This document shows, in pieces, positions 8,788 to 45,802 of a stretch of 60,626 bases of DNA; the stretch's first letter is position 1; each line of letters starts with the position of its first letter. The stretch spans positions 1-60,626 of the forward strand of contig JBHLLJ010000004.1 of NCBI GenBank assembly GCA_048885705.1, in the 5' to 3' direction. Below the pieces are notes generated by a model. The model saw only the letters and a list, made by a program, of their open reading frames with translations, was not told the origin of the DNA and did not search any database. This DNA comes from Candidatus Hermodarchaeota archaeon. GTDB taxonomy: Archaea > Asgardarchaeota > Lokiarchaeia > Sigyniarchaeales > SOKP01. The position numbers were made by a program, and so were the translations under genes.

Positions 8788-10653
8788 ATGGTTAATGGAT
8801 ATACAGGAAATATTCTTCGTGTAAATTTGTCAAATGGAGCAATCTCAATTGAAAATCCTGATGAAATTTTCTATCGTCGATATATTGGTGGTGAGGGATT
8901 CATAGCTTACTATCTTTTGAAAGAAGTTCCACAAGGTATTGACCCGCTGAGTCCTGAAAATAAACTAATTTTTGCAACAGGTCCTTTAACGGGTTTCGCG
9001 ATACCAGGAACCGGTAGAAATAGTGTTGGGGCTAAATCTCCCTTAACAGGTGGTTTTGGTGAAGCCGAAGTTGGAGGACATTGGGGTGCAGAATTAAAGC
9101 ATGCAGGATTTGATGCTGTAATAGTGGAAGGAAAAGGAAAAAATCCTGTTTATTTATGGATTAATGATGGAAAGGCAGAATTAAGGGATGCTAGTCATCT
9201 TTGGGGAAAATTAACAGGAGATGCACAAAAAATTATTCAAGAGGAGTTGGATGATAATTTAATTCGTGTGGCACAAATTGGGCCTGGAGGAGAGCAATTA
9301 GTTCGTTATGCGTGTGTTATAAATGATCTAAGAAATGCTGCAGGTCGTACCGGAATGGGTGCTGTAATGGGTTCAAAGAACTTAAAAGCTATTGCTGTGA
9401 GGGGTCATAAAAAACTTGAAGTTAACGATAAAGAAAAATTAAGGGCTAAGATAAAAGAGTTTAATGAAGTTGCGTATAAACCTATGAGGGGTTATTTTGA
9501 ATATGGCACTGGGGGTGCTATAATGGAGCGATTTGCTACATCTGGGAATCTTCCAACAAGGAATTTTCGAGATGGAAATTTTTCTGGAGCAAAAACATTG
9601 GATCCTAGTATTATGAAAGACGAAATTAACCTTAAAATGGAAGCTTGTTATGCGTGTTCAATTCGGTGTAAAAAGATTGTGGAAATTGAAACACCTTGGA
9701 AAGTCGATCCGACTTATGGGGGACCCGAATATGAATCGATTGGGGCATTTGGATCCAATTGTGGCGTGCATGATATAAAAGCCGTTTGTAAAGCAAATGA
9801 ATTTTGTAATAAATATTCATTAGATACGATATCTACTGGAGTTTCTATAGGATTTGCTATGGAATGCTACGAGAATGGACTTATAACTGATAAAGATACT
9901 AATGGAATTAAATTAAATTTTGGAAATGCAGAAGCTATGGTTCAGATGGTTGAAATGATTGCTAAACGTGAAGGACTAGGTGATATTTTAGCAGAGGGTG
10001 TAAAAAGGGCTTCTCAAAAATTAAAGAATGGCTCAGAGAAATTCGCTATGCATGTTAAAGGTCAGGAGATCCCAATGCATGAACCTCGCTTAAAACAGGG
10101 ATTGGGAGTTGGATATACAGTTTCGCCTACCGGTGCCGAACATATGGCGAATATGCATGATACTTCAGTCGCAAGTGAAAGATCCATAGCATTTCATAGT
10201 GCTATTGGGATTTTAGAGCCACTTAAGGTTGATGACTTAGGATCGAAAAAGATCCGAGCTTTAACATATATCAGCAATTGGCAAAACTTATATAATGCCT
10301 TATTAATATGTTATTTCTTACCTTGGGACTATGTTGATGCTCCTGAAATCTTGAGAGCTGTGACTGGCTGGTATACTTCGACATGGGAGTTAATGAAAGT
10401 AGGAGAGAGGATTACTACTATGGCAAGAGTTTTCAATATAAGAGAAGGTTTCACAAAAAAGGATGATTGGTTACCCGAAAGATTTTTTAAACCTCATACA
10501 TCAGGAGAACTCAATGAGACTTCAGTTAACCCAGATGAGCTTAAAAATGCAATAACGACTTATTATAACATGATGGGTTGGAATGAAGATGGAATACCAA
10601 CAAAGTCAAAATTAAAAGAATTAGAGTTGGAATGGCTAATTCAATTTGTTTAA
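8788..10653 (+). CDS. aor: Tungsten-containing aldehyde:ferredoxin oxidoreductase family protein
   Basis: KSPLTG, GRTGMGAVMGSKNLKAI, CYACSIRC Fe-S motif, GPEYE, DTISTG. Confidence 0.93.
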   Translation: MVNGYTGNILRVNLSNGAISIENPDEIFYRRYIGGEGFIAYYLLKEVPQGIDPLSPENKLIFATGPLTGFAIPGTGRNSVGAKSPLTGGFGEAEVGGHWGAELKHAGFDAVIVEGKGKNPVYLWINDGKAELRDASHLWGKLTGDAQKIIQEELDDNLIRVAQIGPGGEQLVRYACVINDLRNAAGRTGMGAVMGSKNLKAIAVRGHKKLEVNDKEKLRAKIKEFNEVAYKPMRGYFEYGTGGAIMERFATSGNLPTRNFRDGNFSGAKTLDPSIMKDEINLKMEACYACSIRCKKIVEIETPWKVDPTYGGPEYESIGAFGSNCGVHDIKAVCKANEFCNKYSLDTISTGVSIGFAMECYENGLITDKDTNGIKLNFGNAEAMVQMVEMIAKREGLGDILAEGVKRASQKLKNGSEKFAMHVKGQEIPMHEPRLKQGLGVGYTVSPTGAEHMANMHDTSVASERSIAFHSAIGILEPLKVDDLGSKKIRALTYISNWQNLYNALLICYFLPWDYVDAPEILRAVTGWYTSTWELMKVGERITTMARVFNIREGFTKKDDWLPERFFKPHTSGELNETSVNPDELKNAITTYYNMMGWNEDGIPTKSKLKELELEWLIQFV

Positions 10654-20182: not shown

Positions 20183-22144
20183 TTACGCACGGTCTCTTAA
20201 ACAAATAGCACCTATTTTGGATTCAATTAAGGTTTTTAGTAACTTTTCTAATTCAATATCTACATCATTAATCTTCATTGAAAATAAAGAGCCTTTGCCA
20301 ATAATTCTTTCAAATTTCTTAAATAGCTTGATTCTTCTATTGATTGAAAGATTTGATTCATGTCTTATTAAACTTGATGAGTATTCAGTTATATTTTGAT
20401 CGAATTCTGTTATGCCGTTATTCCAACAGCCTTGTAAGTAAGAGTCATAATGAGGTTGACTTAAAACAAAATTATTTCCATTTACATCGTTTTTTTCATC
20501 AATAATCTTTTTCATTAAACCAATTATTTTTAGAGCAAAAGATTCGCTATTTTCTGTTTTATCAAGTTCAATTCCACAATGATTTAGCACAGCTTCATTA
20601 AGGCCAAAAAAACTAATGGATTTTAAGGCATTTTTGAAGATATCTCTTTCATCATCTTTAAAAACGTTTGATATAATGGAATTCCATTGTTTTAGTGAAC
20701 CTAATTTCTTTTTTACTAATTTCTCTTTATAATCGAATAATTCAAAAACATAATTTAATTTTTGATATAATATTTCTAGGAATTTTTCGTCATTTTGCTT
20801 TGCATCAACTGATATGATGGGTAAATTGACTAAGATCTTATCGAGTATTAATTGGTTTGACTCAGAACTAGGTATTTGAACAATAGTTGAATTAAATAAA
20901 TTGGAATATGTTTTGTTATATAGAATTATGTTATCTCTTAAATTATTAACAATTAAATTATTTGTACTCTTATAATTTGACTCTGAAGAGAATATCGTTG
21001 AATATTCAAACAATAATAAAGGTTTAATAAATTCTCCACATTTTTTATTTAATGAATTAAGAAAAAATTCATCAATTTGACAATTATTCAATTGAGTCCC
21101 ATTAAAATTGAACTCAAGAGTTAGAGAACTTCTTGTTTTATTAAAAAGATTATTGAATCTAAGGATTTGAGAAACCAGTAAAGAAAGATCAGATAATGTT
21201 GTTTTTGGTTTTGAAAATGAAGAAAGGAATTCATTGTTAAAATTTCCTAAGACTAAGTCCTCAGAATAATAAGGTTTAAGAGAATACAAAAGATCTAGGA
21301 GTTGAATAACCATTTCTGAATGATTTATTTCATTGTTTATTTTATTTTTAGAGGTTTTGAAAAGATAATCTATCAGTGTTTTTGTATTGATATAGAGGCT
21401 TAAAGGCCTTAAAGCCCAGTAATTTAAATGCAAGAGAGCGATTTCGCCTGATAAATATAGATCCGCTAAATTTTTAGGAATAAGATTTAAAAGCAAAAAT
21501 TGCTCAGAAACATCAGAACCTAATTTTTCAATGAAAATTTCAGGATTTATTAGGTCATTGTTGGATTCAAATAATTTAGATACTTCAACGGGAGGGGTTC
21601 CTAATCGAGTTAATTTATGCCTTACTTCCTCTAAACCATTTTCTAATAAAACCGCATTAATATATTCCCGCATTAAAGGAGCTGTCATGTATTCTATATT
21701 AGTCTTAGAAAGACGTTCCTCTACTTCACGAGCAATTTTTCTAGCTAAAAATCGTTCTAATTCACCTTCAGAAATTAAATAATCCTCGATTTTACTTGCA
21801 TCAAAAAGTTCCTTTGAATATTTAGAAGTCCGAATCATTCTTGTTTTATTTTGTTGGTTTAAAATTTCTTCAATAGAAAAGATTTTGTCTATAATCTGTT
21901 CACCTAAAAATGTAATTGAATAACCCTCATTGGAAGAATCTACTAATTCACTTTTTTTCAATGTTTTTAAGTGAAAAGATAAATTAACAGAGGATATATC
22001 ATTTCCTAAAACTTCTTTTTGCAACCTTGAGAAGGGTAATGGAATTTGACTATTTTTTAATTTTTTTAGAATATCAATTCTAATCTTCTGCCCTAGTGTT
22101 TTAAGTTGCTTTTCTAAAATGTTAGGGTTTTTGTCGGTATCCAA
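20183..22144 (-). CDS. ArsR-type winged HTH + ATP-cone + degenerate class III ribonucleotide reductase (NrdD)-like fusion
   Basis: RIDILK.L...FS.L...NLSFHLK.L (HTH); IRTS....FD..KI...L..E...A..IA.EVE...TAPLMRE (ATP cone); RLG.P, LIP..LAD.YLSGEI and SISFFGLNEAV (NrdD-like). No glycyl-radical motif. Confidence 0.8.
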   Translation of the reverse strand: MDTDKNPNILEKQLKTLGQKIRIDILKKLKNSQIPLPFSRLQKEVLGNDISSVNLSFHLKTLKKSELVDSSNEGYSITFLGEQIIDKIFSIEEILNQQNKTRMIRTSKYSKELFDASKIEDYLISEGELERFLARKIAREVEERLSKTNIEYMTAPLMREYINAVLLENGLEEVRHKLTRLGTPPVEVSKLFESNNDLINPEIFIEKLGSDVSEQFLLLNLIPKNLADLYLSGEIALLHLNYWALRPLSLYINTKTLIDYLFKTSKNKINNEINHSEMVIQLLDLLYSLKPYYSEDLVLGNFNNEFLSSFSKPKTTLSDLSLLVSQILRFNNLFNKTRSSLTLEFNFNGTQLNNCQIDEFFLNSLNKKCGEFIKPLLLFEYSTIFSSESNYKSTNNLIVNNLRDNIILYNKTYSNLFNSTIVQIPSSESNQLILDKILVNLPIISVDAKQNDEKFLEILYQKLNYVFELFDYKEKLVKKKLGSLKQWNSIISNVFKDDERDIFKNALKSISFFGLNEAVLNHCGIELDKTENSESFALKIIGLMKKIIDEKNDVNGNNFVLSQPHYDSYLQGCWNNGITEFDQNITEYSSSLIRHESNLSINRRIKLFKKFERIIGKGSLFSMKINDVDIELEKLLKTLIESKIGAICLRDRA

Positions 22145-41806: not shown

Positions 41807-42298
41807 TCATAAATTCCTTTGCATCCAGATTATATCAAAATTGTGATTAAATTTTTTACCAATATTCTTAAATCTTCCACATTCAACAAAACCATGTTTT
41901 TTATGAAAATTTAAGCTTGACTGATTTAACGAAGATAAATTTACTAAGAGAATACTAATTCCGTGTTCTTTAGCATCTTTAATTAATTTATTTAATAATA
42001 ATGTACCTAAACCCTTATTTGTGTGTTTTTCATTAATAAAATATGTTATCTGACCAGTGTGTTCAAAATTTTTGTATGGCAAGTAATTTTTTAAGAACGC
42101 AAAACCAATAGTTCTTGTTCCTAATTCTAATATATAAAAGAATTGAGAAGTTTGCATAATATCATGAAAAAAATTAGTCTTTACTTCATCCTCAAGATAA
42201 GCAGCAAAAGAGTTTTTTATATAATAATTAAAAATAGATAAAATATCATTTATATCGGAAGTATTAGCATTCCTTATTATAAATTCATTTTTCATCAT
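41807..42298 (-). CDS. GNAT N-acetyltransferase (phosphinothricin acetyltransferase/YncA-like)
   Basis: IR.A...D, I.N.YI, KGLGT.LL, N..SL.FH.K.GF...G.F...G.KF...D..WMQ. Confidence 0.9.
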   Translation of the reverse strand: MMKNEFIIRNANTSDINDILSIFNYYIKNSFAAYLEDEVKTNFFHDIMQTSQFFYILELGTRTIGFAFLKNYLPYKNFEHTGQITYFINEKHTNKGLGTLLLNKLIKDAKEHGISILLVNLSSLNQSSLNFHKKHGFVECGRFKNIGKKFNHNFDIIWMQRNL

Positions 42299-42366
42299 TA
42301 TAGATCTATAAGGTATTTAGAATCTTATTTAATGAATTTTTTCCAATGAAAAAGAAAAAAAATAAT

Positions 42367-42439
42367 AATCCCAAAACCCTTGCAAGGTCGTCTATGAGTG
42401 TCTCACTTTTTCACACTCAATTCATTCTTATCTGGGATT
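42367..42439 (-). promoter_or_regulatory. SECIS-like RNA element in the 3' UTR of the UxxU peroxiredoxin-like gene
   Basis: Minus-strand transcript: UAA-GA-AUGAA-U-UGAGUGU-[GAAAAAGUGAG]-ACACUCA-U-AGAC, giving an AUGA/GA core, 7-bp stem and A-rich loop; flanked by AAUCCCAGA / UUUGGGAUU pairing. Confidence 0.75.
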
Positions 42440-42955
42440 TTTAATATATTTATCAATTAGTAAAATCATTGCTCCTACTGAAGGTCTATCTGTCTTGTCT
42501 TTTCCTATATATTTCCAAATAATTTTACCATTCTTATTGATTAAGAATTTACTAGGTATCGCTTGTTTTACTTTAATTTTTCCCCAACCTTCAGCAAACC
42601 AATAGACATCATAGTCTTTAGCAATTTTAGCACCTCGATCAGAGATCATATCTACAGGGAAGCCATTTTCTTCTTTAAATTTTCTCAAAAGTCCGGGTGT
42701 ATCACTAGATATGGATATAATTTTTATATTTCGTTTTTTAAACTCTTGGAAGTATTCGGTTAAATGTATCAATTCTTCTTTTCAATAAGTTCACCAACTA
42801 CCTCGGAAAAAATCAATTAATATGCCGTTATGATTTTTTAATAGATTTTCGAAACTTATTGGTTTGTTATGTATATCTACTGTATTTATCATTGGTGCTG
42901 TAGAATGTAATGTCAATCCCCTAGGTTTATGTGTTTCTATTTTATTTGAATCCAT
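42428..42955 (-). CDS. Peroxiredoxin-like (AhpC/TSA) selenoprotein with UxxU motif, 175 aa
   Basis: From ATG at 42955: MDSNK...GL...AP....DI....I....LL....ILIDFFRGSW-TGA-TY-TGA-KEELIHL, continuing in frame into the track ORF (ISSD, SD...IA..Y, P..FLI...GKI.W.Y...DRP). TGAs at 42793-42791 and 42784-42782 occupy both positions of the FRG.WCPYC motif. Confidence 0.88.
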
Positions 42956-43093
42956 CTTATCTCATACCATAAATTAATTTCAATGCAATAAATCAACTTT
43001 CCTGTAATAATAAAGTCTATAGTTTTAAACATTAGGAATTCGAAAGATTTTTATTTTTAAACTTTATTTTAAACTGATTTCATAATTGGCTCT

Positions 43094-43630
43094 TCACTCA
43101 CTTGAAAATTTTTCAAAAAGGATTTCAGTTATTACATCAAAAGCTCTTTCAACATTAGCACCTGTTTTTGAGGATAATTCAACAAAAGAGGCAAGATTAT
43201 ACTTTTTTGCTGCTAATATTCCATCTTCTCTAGGAACCACTCTAAACTCTTCAAGATCTACCTTAGAACCTATTAACATGATTGGTATATCCCCTGCATG
43301 TTCCCTTATCACTTGTGTCCAATCTGGAAGATGCTCTAATGATGATTGATTGGTAATATCATATAAGAAAAAAGCTCCATTTGCACCCTTACAATACTGA
43401 GAGAGTAAGAACCGAAACCTTTCTTCCCCACCAAAATCCCATATCTGTAATTTTACTTTTTTATCATTGAAATTTGTCGTTTTAGAATAGAAATCTACTC
43501 CAATCGTTAATTTCAAGTCTTCTTGAAAAAAACCCGAAATATATCTTATTGTAAGTGATGTTTTTCCCACGGACGCATCTCCCAACATTAACACCTTAAA
43601 TGTATAATCGTATTGAGTCAAACTAATCAA
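43094..43630 (-). CDS. Rab-like small GTPase
   Basis: YDYTFKVLMLGDASVGKTSL, TIGVDF, KLQIWDFGGEERFR, GSKVDL, ELSSKTG.NV; no C-terminal cysteines. Confidence 0.95.
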   Translation of the reverse strand: MISLTQYDYTFKVLMLGDASVGKTSLTIRYISGFFQEDLKLTIGVDFYSKTTNFNDKKVKLQIWDFGGEERFRFLLSQYCKGANGAFFLYDITNQSSLEHLPDWTQVIREHAGDIPIMLIGSKVDLEEFRVVPREDGILAAKKYNLASFVELSSKTGANVERAFDVITEILFEKFSSE

Positions 43631-43785: not shown

Positions 43786-44427
43786 TCAAATTACCAACAA
43801 TAAAATATTAAAAAAAGAATGAGCAACAGAACCTGGAATTATCGAATAATTAAAATATACATATATGAAGGATAAGAAAAGTCCAAAAGTAAAATAATAC
43901 CCAAAGAAAGTTATTATTGTAGGCATCGGTACTAAAAATGGCGGAACATGGTAAACAGTAAAAATGGCAGAAGAAATAAGAATAGAGTAAACTAATTTTA
44001 ATTTGAAATTAAACTTCTTAATAAGAAATCCCCTAAAAAAAGATTCTTCACAAGGCCCAGTTATGATAATTTGCATAATTATTATAATACACAACTGAAT
44101 AGCACTAGGTTGTAGAGGAGTTGTACTAATAGTTCCTTCTTGAGCTTGTTGAACAAATTCATTACCAAATAGATTTCTGATAATCAAATCTCTAAATAAA
44201 ATGAGAATAAAATTACTAAAGAAGAAAAACAAAATACCAAAACTTAACCCTAATAGAATTTTTATAAACATATTCTTATTTTTTTGAAAACCCATCTCAT
44301 TTATTTCATCCATGAATGATTTCTTCATTAATCGACTGCTAATTAAAGCCGGTAAAACAACAAAAAGTATCTCAAAAAGCATTATCCCTATTAAAATCCA
44401 AGTATTTTCTCCCAACTGCAGGCTCAT
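43786..44427 (-). CDS. CPBP (Abi/CAAX) family intramembrane glutamic protease
   Basis: EESFFRG, FTVYH and HSFFN motifs intact. ATG at 44427 preferred. Confidence 0.9.
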   Translation of the reverse strand: MSLQLGENTWILIGIMLFEILFVVLPALISSRLMKKSFMDEINEMGFQKNKNMFIKILLGLSFGILFFFFSNFILILFRDLIIRNLFGNEFVQQAQEGTISTTPLQPSAIQLCIIIIMQIIITGPCEESFFRGFLIKKFNFKLKLVYSILISSAIFTVYHVPPFLVPMPTIITFFGYYFTFGLFLSFIYVYFNYSIIPGSVAHSFFNILLLVI

Positions 44428-44521
44428 TTTATATATGTTTTTTATAATTATTTTTAGCATATAAATCAAAAAATTGAAGATCTCATTATTATTATTATTA
44501 ATTCGATTATATGTACTTTTA

Positions 44522-45802
44522 ATGACAATTAGGGATAATTATATTAATTCAGAAAGTACAAATTTTAATAATTTTTCCCATAATGCTGATGCTATCAATA
44601 ATTATGGACTGACAAAAGAGCAAATTCTCCACAATTACCTTAGATTAATTGCTAAAGAATATTTAGCAATTGAAGAGTTAAAGAACTCCTTTGTCAAAAT
44701 AGTTCTTGAAAATATAGAGGAATTAAATTTTTCTCAATTCATAAATTTCCCTAAATTTAATATTAAAGAAGTTTTTTTGAAAAAAGAAGTTAAACCTGCA
44801 AATATTAGAGGATTAAATGTAGTATCTGTTGATGGAAGCTCTGTAACCAAGAAATATGCGGATGTAGACTTCTCATTTTTAAAAGCTATAGCAGTAAAGT
44901 ATTACTTCAGAAAAAACCATGTTGCTAATATTGCTTATTTCCCCGATCTTAATGGTTTTAATAATTATTTAGTTCAAAGTAATTTCCTTAATCGAGATGA
45001 AATAGCAGTTGAAACTAAAATATCCATTGATATGACGTTTATGGAAATCAACCTATTAAATAATATGATTGAAAAATCTTCTGATATTGATATGATAATA
45101 ATTGATGGTTCGATTGTTATTATGCCAATAAATTTGGTATTTACTAAAGATCTTGAGATTTCTAAGATGTACGATAAATTATTGAAAGAATACCAGAAAT
45201 TATACTTAAATTGTAAAGAAAAAGGAATATTATTAATAGGTTCAATTAAAGATACAAGAACTTCTGCTTTATGTCATTTATTAAGAGATTCTATTCAATT
45301 ATTAAAACCTAATCAGACAAGATTAACTGATTTTATTAAGGCTGATTATCGAAAAGTAATAGAGTATTTTTCAGATTTAGATTTGTTTAATAGAATAATG
45401 AAAAAGTCTGAAAGAACCTGTATTTTCAATTGTAAAAGAGAAATTGATAAAATAAGAGATACAGGAATTAAAAAAGAAATTCCATATTATTTTCCTCTCT
45501 CTTTTTATGCATTCTATCTAAAGACTGTCCAATATGATACTCCTTGCAGAATTGAGTTTTTTATGGAAGAGACACACTCTTTTAAAAAGGCTTCAGAAAA
45601 AGCAGATCTAATTACATCGATTATATTACCAATATCAAATTTGAATGAGAATTATGGTTTACCTATTCCTCAAGTTGAAGCCCATAAGAGAGCTGTTTTT
45701 AAAGCAACAGAAGTAGATCTATTACTCAATAATCTGACTAGAACTTTGAATCTACATGGTATTTCTCTATTAGAAAAAAGAAGAAATAGGAGACCATTTT
45801 AG
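44522..45802 (+). CDS. nurA: NurA-family nuclease
   Basis: VSVDGS, E..L, IIIDGS, G..KD, RIEF, YG.P.P..EAH..A. ATG at 44522 preferred. Confidence 0.8.
   Translation: MTIRDNYINSESTNFNNFSHNADAINNYGLTKEQILHNYLRLIAKEYLAIEELKNSFVKIVLENIEELNFSQFINFPKFNIKEVFLKKEVKPANIRGLNVVSVDGSSVTKKYADVDFSFLKAIAVKYYFRKNHVANIAYFPDLNGFNNYLVQSNFLNRDEIAVETKISIDMTFMEINLLNNMIEKSSDIDMIIIDGSIVIMPINLVFTKDLEISKMYDKLLKEYQKLYLNCKEKGILLIGSIKDTRTSALCHLLRDSIQLLKPNQTRLTDFIKADYRKVIEYFSDLDLFNRIMKKSERTCIFNCKREIDKIRDTGIKKEIPYYFPLSFYAFYLKTVQYDTPCRIEFFMEETHSFKKASEKADLITSIILPISNLNENYGLPIPQVEAHKRAVFKATEVDLLLNNLTRTLNLHGISLLEKRRNRRPF

Follow-up and report, generated by a model that had tools for sequence, protein, structure and literature searches.

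Is an archaeal reading frame interrupted by two TGA codons, which fall exactly on the two positions where a redoxin would carry the cysteines of its redox box, a broken gene, or does it encode a protein with two selenocysteine (Sec) residues? This is the question raised by a locus on the minus strand of a 60,626-nucleotide stretch of DNA from Candidatus Hermodarchaeota archaeon (contig JBHLLJ010000004.1, assembly GCA_048885705.1). The stretch as a whole is referred to here as the window, and it corresponds to contig C4 in an assembly of 3.4 Mb. The original prediction, made from the sequence alone, was of a peroxiredoxin (Prx)-like protein with two Sec residues, followed by an element resembling a selenocysteine insertion sequence (SECIS). 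In this study, we revisited the locus by computational analysis and conclude, with a probability that we put at roughly 0.92, that it is a real and conserved gene for a two-selenocysteine Prx-like oxidoreductase, which is accompanied by its SECIS element.

Reading frame and the two in-frame TGA codons

The coding sequence of the PrxL.1-type selenoprotein (42428..42955, minus strand) runs from the ATG at 42955 to a TAA at 42430-42428 and specifies 175 residues with an AhpC-TSA/Redoxin domain; orthologues are present in the genus. Among its 175 sense codons there are two internal stop codons and both are TGA, namely codon 55 (42791..42793, minus strand) and codon 58 (42782..42784, minus strand), which form the first and the second position of a W-U-x-x-U redox box, U standing for Sec. 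The surrounding codons, TTC CGA GGT AGT TGG TGA ACT TAT TGA, read F-R-G-S-W-U-T-Y-U, and the earlier description of the frame and of both TGA codons proved exact to the base. We took 42955 as the start because orthologues start at the position of this ATG. An in-frame ATG-GTA-TGA (42956-42970, minus strand) lies upstream, five codons 5' of the start, and some public gene calls (P0002) begin there and likewise take this TGA as Trp. The window protein contains no Cys residue; some of its relatives have between one and three extra Cys.

Translation table 11 splits the frame into 42791-42955 (54 amino acids) and 42428-42772 (114 amino acids), as would be expected if a CxxC redoxin had been hit by two nonsense mutations or if the assembly or the sequencing were in error, and the public annotations of relatives, which are truncated versions of 108-117 amino acids named 'redoxin domain-containing protein', could be taken in the same sense. 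However, four independent sediment DNA runs have no listed variant at either TGA, and one sediment DNA contig spans 42644-43000 with zero differences from the window. A sediment DNA difference is listed at 42789, where the Thr that separates the two Sec positions is changed to Ser, a residue also seen in relatives. Further evidence against a pseudogene comes from the conservation of the TGA codons, from the selection acting on either side of them and from the conserved SECIS element that follows the gene, as described below.

Conservation, selection and evolution of the gene

A homologue search of 161 genomes of the class (E<=1e-10) gave matches in 92 of them. The ten best matches outside the genome of the window, which come from 10 other genomes of the genus and are 68-78% identical, all have two TGA codons, and the next tier of matches, at about 60-68% identity, mostly has one. 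Every listed match that covers the redox box carries at least one TGA; the only stop-free matches are three that cover residues 75-170, 80-166 and 93-164. Among 38 close homologues in other genomes, the two sites read TGA/TGA in 12, TGA/TGT in 14 and TGA/TGC in 12, which means that the first site is TGA in 38 of 38 and that the second is TGA in 12 and TGT or TGC in 26. The conservation of the in-frame TGA codons that one would expect of a selenoprotein is hence found in full at the first site, and at the second site TGA alternates with Cys codons. From 70 loci, 80 records were extracted and two of less than 150 amino acids (a fragment from L061, and L081) were dropped before tree building. All 78 full-length records (at least 150 amino acids) contain U-x-x-[U/C], as UxxU in 36 cases and as UxxC in 42, although these counts are not a frequency because extra two-TGA loci were chosen deliberately.

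Purifying selection acts on both flanks. The ratio of nonsynonymous to synonymous substitution rates (dN/dS) relative to the window gene was 0.11-0.44 upstream of the TGA codons (codons 8-54; 29 of 37 pairs computable) and 0.04-0.19 downstream of them (codons 59-168; 33 of 37 pairs computable), values which lie well below 1 but are rough because dS is near saturation (0.67-3.07). The parts before and after the TGA codons are both translated and constrained, and therefore a pseudogene and a product made up of the C-terminal part only are excluded. The argument of the original prediction that two independent nonsense mutations at just these codons are implausible is in agreement with the TGA conservation, the selection and the SECIS element, and we attach next to no probability to a pseudogene or to an assembly or sequencing error.

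A maximum-likelihood tree for which the two redox positions were masked places the window gene in a clade of 11 UxxU genes (SH-aLRT 96), and this clade is nested among UxxC genes from the same genus. The topology requires 9 changes between UxxU and UxxC, at least 5 of which are forced by well-supported branches. In seven genomes (G055, G059, G064, G079, G089, G100 and G107) a UxxC gene is located about 200 nt upstream of a UxxU gene on the same strand, an arrangement that points to tandem duplication. This suggests that a tandem duplication of the UxxC form (PrxL.2) within the genus-level group gave rise to the UxxU gene. The genome of the window itself holds the UxxU copy and a remote Cys paralogue (29% identical); a UxxC copy was not found in this genome, the completeness of which is 93%. 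Outside the class, in 400 genomes of the phylum, there were only distant stop-free redoxins (E>=1.3e-14, at most 38% identity). No Sec-containing PrxL was found outside the class with the window protein as query, a result that is limited to this query and is not proof of absence.

The SECIS element downstream of the gene

Directly downstream of the gene, where the original prediction had placed a SECIS-like element, lies an element with the pattern AUGA-9-11-9-GA (42391..42425, minus strand), the stem of which covaries in relatives. It starts 2 nt past the TAA, has a geometry of exactly 4-9-11-9-2 and is composed of AUGA (42425-42422), a stem formed by 42421-42413 and 42401-42393, an apical loop (42412-42402) and GA (42392-42391). 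The 11-nt loop, G-A-A-A-A-A-G-U-G-A-G, has a G followed by five A and ends in AG. The SECIS of Lokiarchaeota, lokiSECIS, is described in the main text of Mariotti et al. 2016 (Mol Biol Evol 33:2441; PMC4989117) as AUGA, a 9-bp stem, an 11-nt loop with an A-rich start and an ultraconserved final G that usually follows an A, and GA, located near the stop codon. The window element has all of these features, with 7 of 9 canonical pairs in its stem, and it can be classed as a eukaryote-like SECIS, an Asgard type I eSECIS-like element.

Comparison with relatives supports this structure. Across 37 homologous PrxL elements the stem is 87.7% paired, with compensatory changes at 7 of 9 pairs, and RNAalifold recovers it unaided from the alignment of the PrxL 3' regions. 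In the covariation analysis of these 37 elements 88.0% of the cells are paired, as against at most 54.8% when the pairing is slid, and there are 65 compensatory cells, as against 20.8 in shuffles. A scan of the genome with the SECIS pattern gave 9 matches, compared with 0-3 in each of five local shuffles, and five of the 9 follow frames with in-frame TGA codons, namely the window gene, a VhuD-type gene, an HdrA-type frame and the two orphan candidates described further below. The other four matches, on contigs C8, C22, C75 and C157, were treated as chance matches since no plausible UGA-containing frame lies upstream of them, which is consistent with the 0-3 matches per shuffle.

We also built a covariance model (R1) from the 37 PrxL SECIS regions. 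The model is PrxL-specific, and as 150 of 5418 candidates were scored with it, its results are no census. In the genome of the window it gives 105 bits for the window element, 34.8 bits for a VhuD-type SECIS on contig C170 and a doubtful match on C89 (E 0.54). The C170 element (C170:4866-4961, plus strand) belongs to a second gene of the VhuD type, which has two Sec residues, and the core of this element starts with GUGA and not AUGA, a variant reported in the literature for selD of Thorarchaeia.

A single SECIS in the 3' untranslated region (UTR), about 366 nt downstream, would recruit an EFSec-like factor together with Sec-tRNA(Sec), and the same element would recode both UGA codons, which are three codons apart. 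That one SECIS must serve two UGAs so placed might suggest that only the first is recoded efficiently and that the second is largely a stop or a regulatory pause, in which case the main product would have 57 residues and full-length protein would appear only when selenium is plentiful. The toggling of the second site between TGA and TGY in evolution, which implies that Cys works there too, could be read in the same way. However, no part of the gene is better conserved than the 117 codons past the second TGA (dN/dS 0.04-0.19), and UxxU has been kept in several old clades. While a selenium-dependent yield is still compatible with these observations, we regard inefficient recoding of the second UGA as rather improbable and favour the recoding of both codons.

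Selenocysteine machinery and the meaning of TGA

A two-Sec reading presupposes that the genome has the machinery for Sec insertion. A tRNA-Sec is present, scoring 61.1 bits in Rfam (gathering score 47) and being called by ARAGORN as tRNA-SeC with the anticodon TCA, and the SepSecS gene (481 bits; cut-off 225) follows 70 nt downstream. SelD, the gene for which has one in-frame TGA of its own, scores 185 bits (cut-off 125). On the contig with the tRNA-Sec there is furthermore an EFSec-like GTPase of 472 amino acids with selB as its best match (236 bits, EF-Tu 137), and a PSTK-like open reading frame (ORF) is the best match of the PSTK family in the genome. The Sec pathway of this genome is thus complete-looking, with tRNA-Sec, SepSecS and SelD above the cut-offs and the PSTK-like and EFSec-like proteins present below them. 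Part of it forms a gene cluster on contig C49 (15-22 kb), where the EFSec-like gene (about 15.0-16.4 kb, minus strand), the tRNA-Sec gene (20418-20506) and the SepSecS gene (20577-21878) lie within 7 kb.

It could be argued that TGA is instead read as Trp or Gly throughout the genome, and public full-length versions of the protein with W at both sites do exist (P0002, P0003). This would be at odds with several observations. Of 1214 ORFs with 300 or more amino acids, 156 terminate in TGA, beyond which another stop follows in frame after a median of 7 codons; the SepSecS, PSTK-like and EFSec-like genes are free of internal stops; the tRNA-Sec with the anticodon TCA is in the genome; and the two TGA codons are at Cys positions of the fold, not at Trp positions. 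TGA is an ordinary stop codon elsewhere in the genome and there is no genome-wide reassignment, so that a code change has hardly any credibility as an explanation of the locus.

Fold and type of enzyme

The read-through protein matches PF00578 (AhpC-TSA; 86.4 bits, cut-off 26, E 1.9e-24) and PF08534 (Redoxin; 71.7 bits, E 7.6e-20) over residues 19-163, and on these matches the AhpC/TSA-like assignment is well founded. By family profile, the nearest solved structures are the BCP/PrxQ proteins 2cx3 (2.1e-20) and 2ywn (6.8e-20), with ResA (4nmu, 4.1e-19) close behind. The redox box W-U-T-Y-U (residues 54-58) is a CxxC box of the thioredoxin type that replaces the T/S-x-x-C of Prx. That both TGA codons fall on this box is confirmed by the structure-sequence alignment and by the conservation in the family, in which R51, both redox positions, D85, D106, P134, W147 and R157-P158 are invariant in 36 members. 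In the alignment to 2cx3, R51 takes the place of the Prx Pro, U55 that of the Prx Ser/Thr and U58 that of the peroxidatic Cys, and the catalytic Arg of Prx is a Gln in the window protein (aligned to 2cx3 and 2ywn). U58 also aligns with the second Cys of ResA 4nmu, and an insert of the family, I-P-S, is the counterpart of L-P-T, the cis-Pro segment of that protein.

These alignments can be read in two ways. The protein might be a genuine peroxiredoxin, with U58 as the peroxidatic and U55 as the resolving residue, which detoxifies peroxides in an oxygen-sensitive archaeon. This would agree with archaeal BCP/PrxQ proteins (2cx3, 2ywn) being the best sequence matches in PDB, with AhpC-TSA being the best Pfam match and with the alignment of U58 to the peroxidatic Cys of BCP/PrxQ. 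However, R-G-x-W-U-x-x-U stands in place of PxxxS/TxxC and Gln in place of the Prx Arg, and the ResA-like cis-Pro insert is present, ResA scoring almost equally (4.1e-19). Compared with 2cx3 and 2ywn, neither the PxxxT/SxxC motif nor the catalytic Arg of peroxiredoxins proper was found. The term 'peroxiredoxin-like' used in the original prediction is therefore appropriate for the fold and not for the catalysis, for which the peroxiredoxin motif is absent, and we think a genuine peroxiredoxin unlikely. Since other residues stand at the positions of the Prx Pro, Thr and Arg, and since the protein has a cis-proline segment like that of ResA, we have filed the product as a probable oxidoreductase of the thioredoxin type (W-C-x-x-C) built on a BCP-like scaffold, in line with the literature, where it is called 'Prx-like'; we do not regard it as a peroxidase.

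As such it would be a cytoplasmic thioredoxin-fold oxidoreductase of 175 residues that belongs to the Prx-like selenoprotein family of Lokiarchaeia (PrxL.1 type). The UxxU spacing at the CxxC position suggests that the two Sec residues could form a reversible intramolecular Se-Se bond, and the protein might then cycle between a diselenol and a diselenide and act as a selenol/thiol-disulfide oxidoreductase of very low potential. Diselenide redox boxes are rare and, to our knowledge, nobody has characterized the PrxL family biochemically.

Evidence that weighs against the two-selenocysteine reading

The conclusion that this is a two-selenocysteine gene has to be set against a number of points that speak for caution. 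No SECIS family, and indeed no family at all, was matched by Rfam in the whole window at gathering thresholds, the 96-nt 3' region, when folded as a single sequence, does no better than shuffles (z = -0.16), and canonical pairs occupy only 7 of the 9 positions of the SECIS stem. The SECIS structure is thus supported by sequence comparison and not by thermodynamics, since the fold is unremarkable and the covariation is positive. A permissive Rfam scan of 42250-42500 gave three snoRNA/lncRNA matches, which were rejected as being at chance level (E 6.6-9.7). According to the main text of the 2016 paper (PMC4989117), curated SECIS tools likewise missed lokiSECIS at that time. Two parts of the Sec machinery score below their curated cut-offs, the PSTK-like ORF with 146.5 bits (cut-off 290.5) and the EFSec-like ORF, just so, with 236-237 bits (cut-off of the bacterial selB model 242); both models were built without Asgard sequences. 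The assembly is 92.9% complete with 4.1% contamination, and the dN/dS values suffer from the near saturation of dS mentioned above. No RNA run containing the stretch is listed, the matching runs being all DNA. Finally, the diselenide chemistry as well as any partner or substrate is a matter of inference.

A possible three-way junction around the SECIS element

The SECIS element of the window may be embedded in a larger structure. The 5' strand of a closing helix (helix I), AAUCCCA, is located in the last codons of the gene (Asn-Pro-Arg; 42433..42439, minus strand) and pairs with a 3' strand, UGGGAUU (42367..42373, minus strand); between the GA of the SECIS and this 3' strand there is a 3' hairpin (helix III; 42375..42389, minus strand). 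Helix I is followed by a T-rich tract (about 42365-42348, minus strand), which, judged by its oligo-T run, may end transcription.

In the 37 PrxL elements helix I is 89.0% paired, pair 39-103 being CG in 31, UA in 5 and UG in 1, and the helix forms in the minimum free energy (MFE) fold of the 110-nt region; it was not predicted by RNAalifold from the alignment of the PrxL 3' regions. Helix III is 87.3% paired, its pairs 87-99 and 86-100 covary, and RNAalifold predicts it independently. Four SECIS elements of the genome have the same junction layout in their MFE folds. A set of 30 VhuD elements is 95.8% paired in this layout, with an invariant helix I that is for this reason uninformative. The 11 elements of the small membrane selenoprotein candidate described below are 91.9% paired overall and 93.9% paired in helix I, with CG-to-UA changes at two pairs. 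A junction of closing helix, SECIS arm and 3' hairpin is common to the selenoprotein SECIS elements of this genome (window, C53, C58, C25, C44 and C170). Where the coding sequence ends earlier, AAUCC persists in the 3' UTR, as for example in L038, L041 and the UxxC gene of L027.

Published main texts, including that of PMC4989117, describe the SECIS core, the upper stem, the apical loop and a generic lower stem only. A literature search on lokiSECIS or a SECIS three-way junction found nothing further on Asgard archaea in the main texts covered, which leaves priority uncertain. That the SECIS forms part of a conserved three-way junction, as one of its arms, in the selenoprotein genes of the genus, going beyond the published stem-loop, and that the second redox position has in addition been toggled at least five times, is a combined proposal which we make tentatively and to which we would give slightly less than even odds. 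As the last sense codons (Asn-Pro) form the 5' strand of helix I, a ribosome that reaches the stop codon must melt this helix. Should the junction be functional, it could for example be a docking platform that replaces the missing SBP2 or, alternatively, a switch that exposes the kink-turn only once translation has passed the UGAs, and it would, if true, be an undescribed part of the transition from the archaeal to the eukaryotic SECIS.

Orphan selenoprotein candidates, public annotation and neighbouring genes

Two of the SECIS pattern matches follow frames that may represent two new selenoprotein families, both of which are candidates predicted from sequence. The first (contig C44:22952-23182, minus strand; locus L097:150-383, minus strand) is a single-pass membrane protein of 77 amino acids in which G-G-G-G-U-[AG]-C directly follows the hydrophobic helix; a lokiSECIS lies 16 nt past its stop. 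It has matches in 22 of 54 genomes of the genus, all with in-frame TGA codons (one in 21 cases, two in 1). In 12 fetched loci the U is in a G-G-U context in 12 of 12 and a SECIS is present in 11 of 12. It matches no Pfam family (noise at E 0.057 and 0.16). The second candidate (contig C25, about 10094-10567, minus strand; locus L096:195-668, minus strand) has about 158 amino acids and two adjacent Sec codons. Its sequence contains L-Q-P-D-S-G-C-TGA-TGA-E-K-V, after which come a conserved tail of some 35 residues and, 12 nt beyond the frame, a lokiSECIS. Of the 54 genomes of the genus, 51 contain related DNA, and C-U-U and the tail are kept at the protein level in 9 of 10 orthologous loci. The copy in the genome of the window has a third TGA two codons before the TAA. 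Four of nine relatives stop exactly at this point and the other five do so two to three codons later. There is no Pfam match at E<=1. Neither candidate is among the five families named in the main text of PMC4989117 or the seven named in that of PMC11227280. According to the latter's main text, the 2024 survey searched known families only. If upheld, the junction and the two orphans would extend the selenoproteome of that survey (PMC11227280), and these by-products may outweigh the finding itself.

The PrxL family is systematically mis-annotated in the public protein collection. Relatives of the window protein appear there either with Trp at the Sec codons, where TGA has been called as Trp on short contigs, or as C-terminal fragments of 108-117 amino acids, under names such as 'redoxin domain-containing protein' and 'peroxiredoxin family protein' (P0002, P0003, P0009, P0019, P0022; P0056, P0088). 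The value of the finding therefore lies in annotation, in that the locus should read as a two-Sec selenoprotein of the PrxL.1 type. In addition, the repeated switching between UxxU and UxxC and the frequent tandem pairs offer natural controls for the comparison of diselenide with selenenylsulfide.

The neighbouring genes include those for a Ras-family small GTPase (43094-43630, minus strand; 163 bits), an Rce1-like CAAX protease (43786-44469, minus strand) and the nuclease NurA (44474-45802, plus strand). Together with a GNAT acetyltransferase gene, they give no functional clue to the PrxL gene. The small GTPase would be in keeping with the window coming from an Asgard archaeon.

Comparison with known systems

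The protein can be aligned over about 150 residues with BCP/PrxQ (2cx3, 2ywn) as well as with ResA/TlpA (4nmu, 1st9) proteins (E 2e-20 to 4e-19, family profile). It resembles BCP in the scaffold and in the SD...Y.V segment, and ResA in the W-C-x-x-C box and the cis-Pro segment. In contrast to both, it has Sec at both Cys sites and lacks the Prx Pro, Thr and Arg. Proteins of the ResA/TlpA type have a signal peptide or a membrane anchor, whereas none is present in the window protein, as judged by eye from its N-terminus.

SelL is a protein with an AhpC/TSA-like fold, a UxxU motif and a single SECIS. The window protein shares with it the fold and a UxxU motif under one SECIS, a comparison that is also drawn in the main text of PMC4989117. 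The best NCBIfam match of the window protein is NF040769, 'SelL-related redox protein' (residues 20-115; E 1.1e-14; 54.4 bits, cut-off 120), and with this partial match below the cut-off it is a distant relative of that family and not a member.

The closest known system is the Prx-like family itself. In the main text of Mariotti et al. (PMC4989117), two Prx-like genes of Lokiarchaeota are described, PrxL.2 with one Sec and PrxL.1 with both Cys residues of the redox box replaced by Sec, neither having any other Cys. Prx-like selenoproteins occur in 43.2% of Sec-using Asgard archaea according to the main text of Huang et al. 2024 (PMC11227280), and in two reviews the family is tabulated as UxxC/UxxU with 1-2 Sec. 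The window protein has all three features of this family, a PF00578 domain, UxxC or UxxU, and no further Cys. The UxxC paralogue PrxL.2 is 60-65% identical to it and has the same length, SECIS architecture and invariant residues, but differs in reading W-U-S-H-C-K-K-H where the UxxU form reads W-U-[ST]-Y-U-K-E-E, and it would form a selenenylsulfide and not a diselenide.

For PrxL.1, the main text of PMC4989117 proposes a diselenide, naming SelL as the sole precedent, and reports a lokiSECIS after the stop codon. The novelty implied by the original prediction accordingly does not stand, as the two-Sec Prx-like protein, the diselenide proposal and the comparison with SelL are already contained in that paper. 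Like PrxL.1 of Lokiarchaeota, the window gene has Sec at both redox sites, no other Cys and a lokiSECIS after the stop. We see no difference of kind between the two; the window gene is an orthologue in another genome that is matched by the published description and, because PrxL.1 was described in Lokiarchaeota in 2016, the finding is a correct rediscovery of a selenoprotein that was already known.

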